DNA of 64,000 nucleotides from contig OZ244160.1 of assembly GCA_965216325.1 (NCBI GenBank), positions 256,001-320,000 on the forward strand. Reading direction: 5' to 3'. Below are positions 8,695 to 16,781 of this stretch, in pieces. The stretch comes from Coraliomargarita sp. (GTDB lineage: Bacteria; Verrucomicrobiota; Verrucomicrobiia; Opitutales; Coraliomargaritaceae). Below the pieces are notes generated by a model. It searched no databases and was not told where the DNA came from. It saw nothing but the letters and a program-made list of their open reading frames with translations. How positions within the stretch are numbered: position 1 is the first letter of the stretch; every line of letters starts with the position of its first letter. Position numbers and translations under genes: made by a program.

Positions 8695-8780
8695 GCCCAG
8701 GTGGTGGAATGGTAGACACTGGGGACTTAAAATCCCTTGCCAGCAATGGCGTGCGGGTTCAAGTCCCGCCCTGGGCACCA
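8695..8780 (+). tRNA. tRNA-Leu (anticodon TAA)
   Basis: Acceptor stem GCCCAGG/CCTGGGC, D-loop GGAATGGTAGAC, anticodon loop CTTAAAA, long variable arm, GGTTCAAGTCC, encoded CCA. Confidence 0.97.
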
Positions 8781-8865
8781 GTTGATTATCAGTGGTTTAT
8801 GGTTTCCGTTGGGCGTTTTTTTAATTGTTCTGGTTTTTGATGTGACCAGAAAGTGCCGAATCCTG

Positions 8866-9519
8866 TCAGTGCGTTTTGTATAAAACAACGCCTTGAGGTG
8901 GCGGTGCGATTTTCGGGATGCTATTCTCTACTGCCTGCGTGATGGTGTCGAAGATCCTTTTTGCACTTTCGACCTCTTCGGGGTCCGCCTTTGAGTTGTC
9001 GAGAATTAGGAAATCAGCTTCGAGTCGCATAAGGAACTCGGTTCTCTCTTTTCTGTTATCAACAAAGTGCGAGTCGTTAAGCCCCATATTAACTATATGG
9101 TAGAACCCTGCGGTGCTGGTAGCCACAAGATAGCCAGTTTCTGGGTCCTCAAAAATGTGGTTTCCGTAGTCGATCTCCTCGCATGGGTTTAGGTAGCGCA
9201 TCCCTAAGTCGGACTCTGCTTTATTTGGCCAAGTGTCCGACTTCTTCATATTGCATGAACCTGCGCTCGGAAATAGATTTTTGTATGCGTGTCGCCGCCT
9301 GCCAGTGAGGTGTGGGTCGAAATGGTCGATGTGTATGCCACTCGCTCCGCCAGCCTTAGACTCATGAAGCATGGAGAAGGCACATCGCTTCTTGAAGTCT
9401 CTCTCGATCTCTTTGCGAGAATGCTTGCGGTAGGTGTTATCCGTCAGGATTCGCAACTTACCATCGCTCTTTTTGGGCGCTGGGCCTCTCTTAATACGCG
9501 ACTTTTTCCGCGGAGACAT
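8866..9519 (-). CDS. HNH-family endonuclease (cargo; putative toxin/defence effector)
   Basis: IDHFDP...YKNLFPSAGSCNMKK...YLNPC; the ATG at 9519 lies inside the 3' end of the upstream gene. Confidence 0.75.
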   Translation of the reverse strand: MSPRKKSRIKRGPAPKKSDGKLRILTDNTYRKHSRKEIERDFKKRCAFSMLHESKAGGASGIHIDHFDPHLTGRRRHAYKNLFPSAGSCNMKKSDTWPNKAESDLGMRYLNPCEEIDYGNHIFEDPETGYLVATSTAGFYHIVNMGLNDSHFVDNRKERTEFLMRLEADFLILDNSKADPEEVESAKRIFDTITQAVENSIPKIAPPPQGVVLYKTH

Positions 9520-9916
9520 AGTGGTCAAACGCGTTTAGGAGATTTCGAAACGCTTGCTTACGCTCATATTCTTTAATGCGCTCCTCTGTTGTGCATTGAT
9601 CTAGCGCATCTTCTCGAGCATCGTAGAGCTCCTGAAATTCACGATCTTCAGCTTCACTTGTCTTTTGCTGCGCTTTTAGGAGCATGAGTTCGCTAAAACG
9701 CCCCTTTGCCTGCTCATTCCACTCTACGGGAACCCGAACCCTTGCAGTGGCTGTCGGAGTGGATTCTTTACCAACTGATACTGGCCGCGGCCTTTCAATT
9801 GTTGCGGTGCACTCTAATTCAGTTGCTGATGATGCACTAGCAATAGTTCCTGCCATGCCTACCCCAAGGGCGACAGCAACGGTAGCTGGCTTTGTGTATT
9901 GAATCTTAGACTTCAT
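9491..9916 (-). CDS. Hypothetical cargo protein, putative antitoxin partner of the HNH
   Basis: 141 aa; charged helical C-half RFSELMLLKAQQKTSEAEDREFQEL; overlaps the HNH start. Confidence 0.55.
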   Translation of the reverse strand: MKSKIQYTKPATVAVALGVGMAGTIASASSATELECTATIERPRPVSVGKESTPTATARVRVPVEWNEQAKGRFSELMLLKAQQKTSEAEDREFQELYDAREDALDQCTTEERIKEYERKQAFRNLLNAFDHYVSAEKVAY

Positions 9917-9941
9917 TAGATCAGGAACTTCAATGCTTACA

Positions 9942-10439
9942 TTAACCCTTCATGTAGATATCTGCAAGTAGGTTGAAGTGACATTCAAAAGACGATCGAA
10001 GTAGTGCAACTCCTTCGCATTTAACTTTTTGCGCGTTAGGTTCACCGTCTGCGGTGGGGTAGAATCTTAGGGCAGACGGAGCGTAATTCTCCAAGCGTAT
10101 TTCGGCGAAGTTATCATTTCGTCCAGCATTAACAAGCGCTGCGTGCGCGATTGTTACGCCGCCTTGTGGCATGCGGATTCCACGGTGTATATAGTCAGGT
10201 TTCGCGGGATAGGGCTTTGAGCGCGATAGATACTTTACGATAGATCCAGTATTCTCAGGGTCCATTTCCTTATTTATCGAAAAAGAGAAGCTAGATAGAA
10301 GTTCTCCATCATCGCTGACTAGGCCACATGTAGCAACAATGTAAGGTTTTGCATGCGTAACCACATAACGGTTGAAGGCCATTACGATAGGAAAGCCACT
10401 AAGTGCAGGCATTAAATCTATCTTAATCTCTTTGGACAT
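9942..10439 (-). CDS. Hypothetical cargo protein
   Basis: 165-aa ATG ORF ending 25 bp before the next gene; no family recognised. Confidence 0.6.
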   Translation of the reverse strand: MSKEIKIDLMPALSGFPIVMAFNRYVVTHAKPYIVATCGLVSDDGELLSSFSFSINKEMDPENTGSIVKYLSRSKPYPAKPDYIHRGIRMPQGGVTIAHAALVNAGRNDNFAEIRLENYAPSALRFYPTADGEPNAQKVKCEGVALLRSSFECHFNLLADIYMKG

Positions 10440-14531: not shown

Positions 14532-14723
14532 TTACCGAGTCTCCATTCCTCGAAGTGCCTCGAGTGCCCTATCAATAGGGATTAAAATCAGACGTGGAGT
14601 AGGGCGGCAGTGCGGAACAATGCCCTGCGAAACCAGGTTGTTTACATGGCGACGACTGCAACCGATACGCTTTGCAAACTGAATCGGTTTTTCATATTCG
14701 GCTGTTGGGCTTTCTTGCTTCAT
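14532..14723 (-). CDS. Excisionase/AlpA-like DNA-binding protein
   Basis: 63 aa; FAKRIGCSRRHVNNLVSQGIVPHCR...LILIP winged-HTH pattern. Confidence 0.75.
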   Translation of the reverse strand: MKQESPTAEYEKPIQFAKRIGCSRRHVNNLVSQGIVPHCRPTPRLILIPIDRALEALRGMETR

Positions 14724-14783
14724 GCAACCCATAATGCCGAAAATGCCTCAGTAAAAAAACGAGAGTCGAAAAGTAGAACTTTC

Positions 14784-15440
14784 CTATTTATTCTTCGGGC
14801 GACCCCGAGGCATCTTTAGTAAATTCCAGCCCATTGCCTTAGCTGCGCTCTCGATCGTTTTCTTGTCAGCGGTGCAGTGACTAAGTTCATCAGAAACTTG
14901 CTGCCAGGTGAGCTCCTCCCCATCTCGCTCCGCACGCTGTTTTATTATGACCATTTCTAACCGGACCGGATCAAGCGGGCCTGTTGATTCCTTTTTGCGG
15001 CGCAAACTACGGGAAAGAGCCTCAAAGAATTCAAAATTAAGCTCCTCTATTTTTCCACGAAGAAGCTTTCCCAGGTATTCATCCTCAAATCCTTCTTGCC
15101 CTGTTTGATGGTCGAGAACCACTTGATCGCAGACACCCAAATCCGGATGATTTATTACATCCTCGCCATCGGAAAAGAAACAGATGCGCTCATTGAACCC
15201 CCCTGGCATATCAGGCAGATACATATTAGGCTTCCTTCCAGTCTTCACTGGGTTGCTCTTCTTTTTGTTATACGCTGTTGAGGAAAATTTTGGATTCGCG
15301 GCAAGCCACGCCCGAGCCTCACTTAAAGTCGCCCTGGATCCAGGCATAACAAACCCCGCTTCCTTCATCGCAAATATGTATCCACGGTTGCGACCAAGTT
15401 CAGCCGCCAACTCTTTCACAGATAGTAACTTTTCAGTCAT
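14784..15440 (-). CDS. DNA-binding protein with N-terminal winged-HTH, coupled to the integrase
   Basis: ATGA overlap with the integrase stop (15437-15440), GGAGGA RBS; LSVKELAAELGRNRGY...ARAWL. Confidence 0.7.
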   Translation of the reverse strand: MTEKLLSVKELAAELGRNRGYIFAMKEAGFVMPGSRATLSEARAWLAANPKFSSTAYNKKKSNPVKTGRKPNMYLPDMPGGFNERICFFSDGEDVINHPDLGVCDQVVLDHQTGQEGFEDEYLGKLLRGKIEELNFEFFEALSRSLRRKKESTGPLDPVRLEMVIIKQRAERDGEELTWQQVSDELSHCTADKKTIESAAKAMGWNLLKMPRGRPKNK

Positions 15441-16618
15441 GCAACATCCTCCACTAATTGAGCGCCCTTCGGCGCTATTCTCCAAAACTTCACGCCGTCG
15501 GCCTTTTTTACCAGGGCCCTATAGTGCTGCAAAACCATTTCAGGCGTGCCGTGCCCCATGGCCTCCTGCAGCTTCTTGATATCGCCATAAGCGGCTAGGT
15601 GATAGCTCGCGAAGGAGTGCCGCAGAACATCCTGCTTTTTCGCTATTCCGACAACGTGGCGAATCGCTTTAATCTTATCCCCCCATACGGATGGAATGAT
15701 TCTCCCCGTTCGTTCCCCTTCGGGCGTCAACTCCAGCCAGGCGCGGAGATTTGTGGCCATTTCAATATTCCGGACGGACCGCGTTTTCGCTACATCGAGA
15801 CCGACCTTAATAAACTCATGGTCAAAGTCTACGTGCTCCCAATGTAGCCGAGTAATTTCTTTCGGACGGATTCCCGCGAAAAGTTGCAAAGCAACAGCCG
15901 GAATACAGTCGGAGCAATCTAGGCGGTAACTCATCGGGATGTTCTTTTCCTTCCGGTGGTCGCGACAAGCCTCGAGAACCGCCTCACACTCCTCGAGTGT
16001 TGCAATCTCAGTCGGTGACTTCTTCGGCTTCCGTGATTCGATCCGAGTAAATGGGTTTTCGTCTAGATAACCCCGCTTTATGGCGAAACTGAAAGCAGGA
16101 CGAATCGTCCTTGAAGCATTGTCGAATTGTCGGTCCGTATGGAAAGATCCTTCGATAGCCTTCTCTATCTCGATTGGCTCAATCTCCGAAACTGTCCTTT
16201 GTCCCAATGCAGCAATAAGAGGGACCGAATACCGAGACATGTCCTTTAAATATGAATCCGAAACGCTAGTCTCCTTGCGCTCTTGGTATTCGTTCCAGAG
16301 AGCTTCTAGGGTGACAGAGCGATCTGTCCTTTCTTTCCAGTCGCTCCAATGTTGAGCGGCCTCCGAGAGCGTGCAGCGACCGTTTAGAATATCGTAGGCT
16401 TTCGCCGCGTCCTCGGCTTCTCCAGCGGTTAGCCGGCGAGAAGTCTCGCCCCATTTTCGGAGCTCGCCCTTTATCCTGGATGCTTCGGTCTTTGCCTTGC
16501 TTTCGTTTGAGAAAAACAGGCGCTGTCTCTTTCCAGTCGGGGAGGCTTTTGCGCTGACATCAAGTAGCCAGCGGCCATCAGGCAAGGATTTCGGCTCAAG
16601 TGCAGGTGATTTCGGCAT
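15437..16618 (-). CDS. Tyrosine recombinase (phage integrase)
   Basis: AGIRPKEI (R), AKTR (K), LRHSFASYH (H-x-x-R region reads DVLRH), AMGH (H), QHY (Y); about 110 bp from the att repeat. Confidence 0.95.
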   Translation of the reverse strand: MPKSPALEPKSLPDGRWLLDVSAKASPTGKRQRLFFSNESKAKTEASRIKGELRKWGETSRRLTAGEAEDAAKAYDILNGRCTLSEAAQHWSDWKERTDRSVTLEALWNEYQERKETSVSDSYLKDMSRYSVPLIAALGQRTVSEIEPIEIEKAIEGSFHTDRQFDNASRTIRPAFSFAIKRGYLDENPFTRIESRKPKKSPTEIATLEECEAVLEACRDHRKEKNIPMSYRLDCSDCIPAVALQLFAGIRPKEITRLHWEHVDFDHEFIKVGLDVAKTRSVRNIEMATNLRAWLELTPEGERTGRIIPSVWGDKIKAIRHVVGIAKKQDVLRHSFASYHLAAYGDIKKLQEAMGHGTPEMVLQHYRALVKKADGVKFWRIAPKGAQLVEDVA

Positions 16619-16727
16619 GACTCCAGACTGCCCAATGATGCCCAAACAACAAGCCTTTAATGCCTTAAATGCCTAAATAGTGCCTAAATTACATGTTGAT
16701 AAGCAATGGCTTAGGTAATTGCGGCAA

Positions 16728-16781
16728 ACTTAAAATCCCTTGCCAGCAATGGCGTGCGGGTTCAAGTCCCGCCCTGGGCAC
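16728..16781 (+). repeat. att site: duplicate of the tRNA-Leu 3' part
   Basis: 54 bp identical to 8725-8778, starting at the anticodon loop. Confidence 0.95.

Follow-up and report, generated by a model that had tools for sequence, protein, structure and literature searches.

An 8-kb island in a tRNA-Leu gene of Coraliomargarita sp. with capsid and prohead protease genes, a candidate shell-only phage satellite

In this study, we analyzed a 64,000-nt stretch of contig OZ244160.1 of Coraliomargarita sp. (referred to below as the window), which contains an island of 8,003 bp bounded by a perfect 54-bp direct repeat. The island is discrete, looks intact, and is polymorphic exactly at its attachment (att) ends, and it carries the genes of an HK97-fold major capsid protein (MCP) and of a prohead protease. 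On balance, we lean towards the view that it is a capsid-encoding phage satellite supplying shell and protease only ("shell-only"), and it most likely depends on a helper phage, because it has capsid and protease genes and lacks genes for a portal, a packaging motor, a tail, or replication. Capsid-encoding satellites as such are already known. The known satellites stand at two poles, at which either the capsid of the helper is reshaped (P4, SaPIs, and PLE) or a whole head is encoded together with a packaging set (capsid-forming PICIs, cf-PICIs, and MulchRoom). A satellite bringing only shell and protease would be an intermediate between these poles and would raise the question of whether a foreign capsid protein assembles on the portal of another phage and is filled by the terminase of that phage. 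Among cultured Verrucomicrobia, a phylum whose phage biology is barely explored, it would also provide a first satellite candidate open to testing. If the capsid genes are instead remnants of a fuller element, as discussed below, this would be an ordinary genomic island.

Boundaries and polymorphism of the island

The integration target is a tRNA-Leu(TAA) gene (8695..8780, plus strand), which was identified by both ARAGORN and Rfam (RF00005, 59.3 bits); it is the sole tRNA gene found by ARAGORN in the window, and the Rfam scan returned tRNA only. A repeat search placed attL at 8725..8778, which corresponds to the 3' 54 nt of the tRNA gene before its CCA, and attR, a displaced 3' part of the tRNA without the CCA, at 16728..16781; the two copies show 100% identity at a spacing of 8003. 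A 54-mer repeated in this way is far beyond chance, because the remaining repeats in the 11-kb region are short and mostly imperfect: eight other repeat families were found there, all of 20–25 nt and imperfect except for one 21-nt copy of the tRNA end. The unit contains 11 genes, all on the minus strand, with a coding density of 87.7%. These data confirmed a preliminary description of this DNA, made by reading the sequence, which had proposed a perfect att duplication in tRNA-Leu defining the 8,003-bp unit, genes in a given order on a single strand, both ends present, and no obvious gene debris.

A natural empty site was found in an aquatic metagenome run (X5). In this run, a 674-nt contig of a close relative fuses position 8724 to position 16728, omitting exactly 8,003 bp, with two to three differences per flank from the window, and the same run also contains low-depth contigs identical to portions of the island. 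The joint lies at the att core, and therefore the island represents a presence/absence polymorphism within the species, with exact ends; the empty-site variant also offers ready primers for attB/attP assays. The X5 contigs over 13822–16636 were letter-identical to the window, those over 12121–13124 differed from it at many sites, and no contig of the run matched 8951–12120. This pattern hints at related islands with the integrase/regulatory half in common and differing capsid halves, possibly as a mosaic variant.

The presence of the island in relatives and its copy number in culture were also examined. Among 40 related genomes, matches were confined to the flank, the tRNA, and the DNA past attR, and the island interior was found in none of them (0/40); in two genomes of the same genus (G002 and G003), the sequence that follows attR here starts approximately 20 nt after the tRNA. 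The G+C content of the island is 49.7%, compared with 53.3% for the genome. In isolate-like runs, an 8,009-nt island contig had nearly the same depth as its flanks (406.6 vs. 401 and 392; 1297 vs. 1272 and 1227), and the depth of the 54-mer was twice that of the island and flanks.

A third copy of the tRNA-Leu 3' end, 21 nt in length and including the CCA, lies at 16937–16957, 174 nt past attR (region 16782–16964). The 60–90 nt around this copy occur in other genomes approximately 20 nt after their tRNA-Leu, and also at several further sites in this genome, once by another tRNA-like match (at about 674.8 kb). This copy may be what is left of an old att site, or it may belong to a repeat associated with tRNAs.

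The capsid operon, its upstream DNA, and the helper question

Read along the minus strand, the island consists of an integrase gene, genes of a 218-aa helix-turn-helix (HTH) protein, a 66-aa HTH_17 protein, a 137-aa HTH protein, and a 149-aa protein, approximately 450 nt of non-coding DNA, genes of a 163-aa HTH protein, the capsid, and the protease, a hairpin followed by a run of T, and three further genes. Pfam cut-offs were passed by three of the proteins, namely the integrase, the capsid, and the protease. Scans of the 12 island open reading frames (ORFs) against Pfam, PHROGs, and NCBIfam detected no portal, terminase, connector, tail, lysis, or primase/helicase family, in agreement with the preliminary description, which had recognized no portal, large terminase, tail, lysis gene, or full primase-helicase. 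Besides the integrase and capsid genes, no ORF in the island exceeds 233 aa. Portals and large terminases are larger than this.

The capsid gene (11165..12652, minus strand) encodes 495 aa when read from a GTG, and its probable start is an ATG at 12634. The product matched PF05065 (E 1.4e-36, profile positions 18–279 of 280), TIGR01554 (residues 199–490), and phrog_617, and it has a long N-terminal region of approximately 200 aa; M7 was invariant in an alignment of 20 sequences. The next gene (10606..11142, minus strand) encodes a 178-aa HK97-type prohead serine protease (S78), which matched PF04586 (E 4.7e-47, positions 7–153 of 165) and TIGR01543. Residues H82 and S133, which we take to be catalytic, were invariant in all of the eight aligned proteases. 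Compared with an HK97 head module, the capsid domain is thus complete and the His and Ser of the protease are present, while the C-terminal tail of the protease is missing (see below). The readings as an encapsulin or a gene transfer agent were dropped, since the capsid matches a phage family alongside an S78 protease within an integrase-bounded unit. The operon begins with the gene of a 163-aa helical protein with a C-terminal HTH (12649..13140, minus strand), whose ATG is at 13140 and whose stop abuts the capsid start. It is closed by a terminator-like hairpin (10540..10581, minus strand) with an 11-bp G+C-rich stem followed by five T, which was read directly; a consensus promoter/terminator scan gave no excess over shuffled sequences and did not list this hairpin on the minus strand.

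The closest capsid homologues were P0002 (77% identity), P0003 and P0004 (both 68%), and P0005 (56%), with coverage of 98–99%, followed by P0006–P0008, which match over part of the length only (47–56%). No capsid relative above 48% identity was found in 100 other genomes of the family or in 400 other genomes of the order. The 163-aa protein had three homologues among 1.84 billion representatives (P0243–P0245, with 60, 51, and 37% identity), and the 218-aa protein had one (P0242, 54%), whose longest contig, of 8,486 bp, is the same as that listed for the capsid homologue P0007. All three proteins thus have diverged full-length homologues, suggesting a maintained lineage under selection over a long time. 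In IMG/VR, no relative of the 163-aa or the 218-aa protein was found. Capsids of cultured phages reached 31% identity at best, and the DNA of these phages gave no match to the island's regulatory half.

The best viral capsid match (48%) was that of L017, a 33-kb IMG/VR contig encoding, in this order, a ParB-methyltransferase, the small and large terminase subunits (TerS and TerL), a portal, a protease, a capsid, an adaptor, a tail fibre, and a tape measure. Besides the capsid and a small HTH domain, L017 and the island have in common a non-coding block, located directly upstream of the capsid operon (13141..13345, minus strand), with 71% identity over 163 nt by blastn (E 1e-11) and a total length of about 200 nt. 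In L017, its copy (432–640) lies directly upstream of the ParB-methyltransferase/TerS/TerL genes and in no annotated frame; a 153-aa ORF runs across the block in the island, and the frame of the match corresponds to neither L017 ORF. The block could be a terminase recognition site (cos/pac), a late-operon control region, or a structured leader. RNAalifold predicted 38 pairs, 11 of them with double changes, from an alignment of two sequences only, and a long-range closed structure was predicted in both, in which the closing helix has six double changes and an inner hairpin three. Among 300 column shuffles, 1.3% reached 11 double changes and 61% reached the consensus energy, and the folding energies of the two sequences were no better than those of shuffles (z 0.33 and 0.44). 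Upstream of the block lies an A+T-rich non-coding stretch (13346..13590) that contains a 14-nt inverted repeat (13436–13449/13516–13529, 93% complementary), a candidate operator or origin.

We also searched the genome, which is 99.98% complete, for the missing head and packaging functions. Over all but 24 kb of it, the families PF04860, PF03354, and PF03237 gave no matches, and tblastn with portal, TerL, TerS, and connector queries from the loci described below returned only the island's own capsid and protease. These results suggested that the helper, if any, is an incoming phage, because no portal or terminase families were found in the genome.

On this basis, the following course can be proposed for a shell-only satellite. 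Infection by a siphovirus of the L017 type would lead to excision of the element by the integrase and the small HTH proteins, and the 200-nt phage-like block would couple the element to the helper as a recognition site of the helper terminase, a late control region, or both. The capsid and protease of the element would then form, or co-assemble into, a small shell on the helper portal, and the terminase, connectors, and tail of the helper would complete the particle. A length of 8.0 kb would fit a shell of approximately T=3 by our own estimate scaled from HK97; alternatively, larger shells might be filled with multimers. For replication, the element would draw on the helper or the host.

Relatives of the capsid gene and known satellites

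To place the island among related head genes, we collected 165 loci with capsid relatives at ≤48% identity from IMG/VR, metagenome contigs, and GTDB genomes, and their genes were clustered and annotated; six of these loci, at 35–40% capsid identity, were on GTDB genome contigs. The protease gene lies upstream of the capsid gene in 68 of the 73 loci having both, and the order in the island is the opposite, so that a simple series of deletions from an ordinary head module does not give the island order. Three loci with the capsid-then-protease order, L127, L129, and L162, carry genes for TerL, the capsid, the protease, a portal, and an integrase in units of approximately 10 kb beside tRNA-Thr, tRNA-Ala, or tRNA-Pro, with no tail genes on the DNA examined; on L127, a metagenome contig of 21,475 bp, a 10,030-bp unit occurs twice in tandem. 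These loci look like small capsid-forming satellites of environmental bacteria. In a capsid tree of 143 rows, the island belongs to a clade of eight (support 99) that is sister to a group of 11 including L017, L028, and G226, and the clade of L127, L162, and L171 is far from it. This tree was made with FastTree only, and it suggests that the capsid-then-protease order probably arose by convergence.

Capsid genes without portal or terminase genes were also found in other small islands. In G226, which belongs to the same order as Coraliomargarita, an integrase with 42% identity, an HTH_17 protein, a 318-aa protein, a DnaB-like helicase, four small ORFs, and a capsid with 46% identity are encoded on one strand up to the contig end, and neither an S78 protease nor the portal family PF04860 was detected in the whole 98%-complete assembly. 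The 8.8-kb metagenome contig L159 carries an HTH gene, a fused protease-capsid gene, pentapeptide and DUF3644 cargo, and an integrase gene beside tRNA-Cys. In L121 (7123–11931), a fused protease-capsid gene, three small ORFs, and a PBP-family gene lie between two tRNA-Thr genes amid housekeeping genes; the fused gene encodes 592–596 aa in L121, L120, and L159. These three cases show that capsid islands lacking portal and terminase genes recur at integrases or tRNAs in separate capsid lineages. It is possible, although we propose it only tentatively, that such islands represent a distinct recurrent strategy, in which a capsid with or without a protease forms the element's own small shell on a helper portal, with a phage-derived cis element linking it to the packaging or late control of the helper and no replication genes of its own. 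The present island, of an Opitutales type, would then be the clearest intact example, and G226, L159, and L121 would be independent cases in other lineages and at other tRNAs. One further locus with a related integrase, a primase-helicase, and a Mu-type protease (L213) is cut by the contig end and was not used.

Several observations weigh against a shell-only satellite. First, no excision, replication, packaging, or transfer was observed; isolate-like runs showed neither a circle nor an empty-site joint, although assembled contigs can hide rare forms, and no replication gene was recognized in the island. Second, the block shared with L017 was found by exact pattern in no other IMG/VR contig and was absent from 400 genomes of the order. 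Third, 88 of the 112 distinct loci have a portal and/or TerL gene and are ordinary siphovirus-type head modules (the other 24 are mostly short contigs), and gene context was compared only for capsid relatives at ≤48% identity. All of the five loci with the capsid-then-protease order have TerL, and their portal gene directly follows the protease gene except in L119 and in the short L171. Fourth, the island protease stops after ...VSEL, without the C-terminal tail of 16–45 aa kept in all of the seven relatives compared. In HK97, this tail targets the protease into the prohead. Maturation may thus be impaired or differently organized. A deletion or replacement would leave a protease without its tail, followed by a terminator and unrelated cargo where the portal gene stands in L127-type elements.

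This combination is the main support for the chief alternative, which we consider rather unlikely, namely that the island descends by reduction or damage from a fuller capsid-forming element (TerL-capsid-protease-portal-integrase, approximately 10 kb) or from a prophage, and that it integrates and perhaps excises but is no longer packaged. Its capsid genes would then be leftovers, or genes en route to loss or domestication. L127, L129, and L162 lend weight to such an origin, since they share the capsid-then-protease order, have TerL, portal, and integrase genes, and adjoin tRNAs, and the terminator and cargo after the tail-less protease would fit a deletion or replacement at the protease/portal junction. 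The lack of any replication or packaging gene in the island and a copy number in culture equal to that of the chromosome are also as expected of a remnant. On the other hand, all 11 ORFs are open and tightly packed, and the diverged full-length homologues of the capsid, 163-aa, and 218-aa proteins point to long-term selection; further, the capsid tree places the island far from L127, L162, and L171 and beside L017, L028, and G226, and portal-less capsid islands recur independently. The preliminary description had named homologues occurring only inside full-length prophages as evidence that would count against a satellite. This is in part what was found among the loci at ≤48% identity, and the small elements having TerL and portal as well as the capsid-then-protease order keep the explanation as a remnant alive. 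The satellite interpretation of that description holds as far as a discrete, intact-looking, polymorphic unit without portal, terminase, tail, or replication genes is concerned; a working shell, a helper, and induction, packaging, or transfer are predicted from the genes.

We then compared the island, as a putative shell-only satellite, with the known satellite families as characterized in the cited papers. On the sequence features tested, the island lies outside every one of these families. Like the cf-PICIs, it is an integrase-headed island with its own HK97-type capsid, a prohead protease, and an HNH gene, without tail or holin genes and with a presumed dependence on a helper. The core set of the cf-PICIs numbers 11 components, among them terL, a head-tail adaptor, a connector, and a primase, with a lowest count of nine in SatelliteFinder types A–C (PMC10085698), and cf-PICIs are reported to take only tails from the helper (Alqurainy et al., bioRxiv 10.1101/2022.09.08.507074). 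In contrast, terL, terS, portal, adaptor, connector, and primase genes were all searched for and not found in the island, in which approximately five components were found (the integrase, a small regulator, the capsid, the protease, and an HNH protein of another type) against at least nine of 11; its length of 8.0 kb also differs from the cf-PICI median of 14 kb (de Sousa et al. 2023, PMC10085698). Classical PICIs have int, divergent regulators, pri-rep with an ori, and terS or genes that set capsid size; in the island, an integrase is present, the genes lie on one strand, and no homologue of pri-rep, terS, cpm, or ppi was found. No match to the alpha primase, sid, psu, delta, or epsilon of P4-like satellites was obtained with Pfam, PHROGs, or NCBIfam.

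A closer likeness was seen to the cos-type SaPIs and to the tycheposons. SaPIbov5 encodes a homologue of the helper capsid, Ccm, which takes up the pentamer positions of small shells (Hawkins et al. 2021, PMC8569155), and the helper terminase acts on a phage-like site in the satellite DNA (PMC8569155; Carpena et al. 2016, PMC5052747). The SaPIbov5 system differs from the island in that Ccm occupies pentamers only, the remaining shell being helper protein, in that no satellite protease is involved, and in that SaPIs have a primase-replicase and divergent regulators, while the 200-nt block of the island is only a candidate cos site. PICI-like tycheposons lie at tRNA sites, carry either terS or an MCP gene, and have primase/helicase hallmark genes in common (Hackl et al., bioRxiv 10.1101/2020.12.28.424599). 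Those of the MCP type resemble the island as small marine-type islands with a tRNA target whose partial copy marks the far end, and with a tyrosine recombinase, an excisionase, and an MCP, which is their single phage packaging-type gene, and they are proposed to hijack phage particles (bioRxiv 10.1101/2020.12.28.424599). Tycheposons are defined by integration/replication hallmarks and an integrase clade of their own, whereas the island, compared with them by description, has no primase/helicase; further, they are known from Prochlorococcus and Proteobacteria and not from Verrucomicrobia, and a protease is not mentioned in the tycheposon text. The preliminary description had likened the island to capsid-bearing elements of the VEIME or tycheposon type. 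VEIMEs encode no major capsid genes and have been found as concatemers inside virus particles, so that this half of the likeness fails, and MCP-carrying PICI-like tycheposons and SaPIbov5 with its Ccm are the better comparison.

Two other groups share single traits with the island. PICMIs are minimal marine satellites in which int and the next gene share an ATGA overlap (the next gene being iolg in PICMI and the 218-aa gene here), with a small AlpA-type regulator and a dependence on an incoming rather than a resident phage, but they lie next to fis, have a primase, lack a capsid gene, and are packed as concatemers into heads of full size (Barcia-Cruz et al. 2024, PMC10803314). The island lies in tRNA-Leu, has a capsid gene and no primase, and the ATGA-overlapping gene is the sole likeness among the PICMI criteria tested. 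MulchRoom and MiniFlayer encode encapsidation proteins and lack key replication genes, as does the island, but their set comprises the small and large terminase, portal, MCP, scaffold, and adaptor, compared with MCP and protease only in the island (deCarvalho et al. 2023, PMC10690885). In the open full-text literature (subscription journals and supplements lying outside this search), we found neither a satellite that combines capsid and protease genes with a lack of portal and terminase genes nor a characterized satellite of Verrucomicrobia; the preliminary description likewise knew of no characterized satellite in this host group.

Regulatory and accessory genes

The integrase gene (15437..16645, minus strand) encodes a tyrosine integrase (PF00589, E 1.4e-12; phrog_1, E 4.3e-36), the homologues of which come from sources named as metagenome-assembled genomes of Opitutae, Puniceicoccales, and Opitutales. 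The ATG of the following gene (14784..15440, minus strand) overlaps the integrase stop as ATGA. According to its sequence and alignment, the 218-aa product is a DNA-binding protein with an HTH at both ends and an RGRP tail; its AlphaFold2 (AF2) model was poor (mean pLDDT 57.5). The 66-aa protein (14532..14732, minus strand) is a candidate recombination directionality factor or AlpA-like regulator. The preliminary description had labeled this gene xis; the gene is present, and its identity as an excisionase is indicated by sub-threshold matches only (HTH_17, E 0.0062; TIGR01764, E 0.021). Homologues of this protein adjoin related integrases in the loci examined (nine locus rows, duplicates included), and it also gave the only TerS signal in the island (phrog_57, E 0.0021 over 24 residues).

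The C-terminal HTH of the 137-aa protein (14027..14440, minus strand) is paralogous to the N-terminal part of the 218-aa protein, with 49% identity over 53 aa between the two loci in a tblastn search of the genome. This HTH domain of approximately 50 aa was also seen in a small gene between the TerL and portal genes in the phage head modules L001, L020, L027, and L002, and in L017 at 4063–4308. The 149-aa protein (13591..14040, minus strand) was taken from the ORF list and belongs to no family; it gave no match in Pfam, PHROG, NCBIfam, or a PDB sequence search, and its earlier label as a winged-helix protein was supported by no search. The idea of a stand-alone primase C-terminal domain was likewise not supported, either in BLASTP comparisons with two primase/helicases or in the search of PDB sequences, and its two IMG/VR matches were coiled-coil noise. 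The AF2 model of the 163-aa protein (mean pLDDT 71) was compared with the folds in PDB and BFVD, where no hit reached E ≤ 0.001 and only generic HTH rows were returned, and the Atlas matches had scores of 0.75 only.

Past the terminator-like hairpin lie the three remaining genes. The first of them (9942..10439, minus strand) encodes a 165-aa protein with no family and no usable Atlas match, and the second (9491..9916, minus strand) encodes a 141-aa protein with no family at E ≤ 0.01, whose hydrophobic N-terminus suggests that it is possibly exported. With six of the 11 proteins lacking a family, one may imagine that a portal and a terminase are hidden among the unannotated genes and that the island is a complete, very small temperate virus. 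The unassigned proteins, with 137–233 aa, do not reach the size of a portal or a large terminase and are mostly of the HTH type, and the island has no tail or lysis gene; we therefore regard this explanation as extremely improbable.

The last gene of the island (8866..9528, minus strand), which we regard as cargo or an accessory gene, encodes a 220-aa HNH nuclease resembling PtuB of the Septu system (PADLOC PDLC00337 PtuB, E 2.8e-11, residues 30–171; PHROG HNH endonuclease, E 1.2e-5; Pfam HNH, E 0.051). Satellites and islands often keep defence genes at the element end. The position of this gene at the end of the element therefore brings up an anti-phage island, in which the capsid homologue and the protease would serve as decoys or poisons of the head assembly of an incoming phage, the PtuB-like nuclease would add to the defence, and rare spread would occur by other routes. 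The absence of packaging genes would suit such an island, and the capsid, at 48% identity to that of a siphovirus contig, is near enough to imagine mixed assembly, as described for the Ccm of SaPIbov5 (PMC8569155). Nevertheless, no ORF of the size or family of the Septu partner PtuA was found in the island, which makes the system incomplete, and a decoy needs no dedicated maturation protease. Since known satellites combine interference with hitch-hiking, this explanation also overlaps with that of a shell-only satellite, and on its own it seems quite improbable to us.

Outside the island, an outer-membrane-type gene past attR (16988–17922, minus strand) is present as two overlapping frames of 232 aa and 89 aa, with the break near 17336. 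At that position, an additional G is present in the related strain of run X5, and the isolate's own runs match the window, so that the split of this gene is a real frameshift in this strain.

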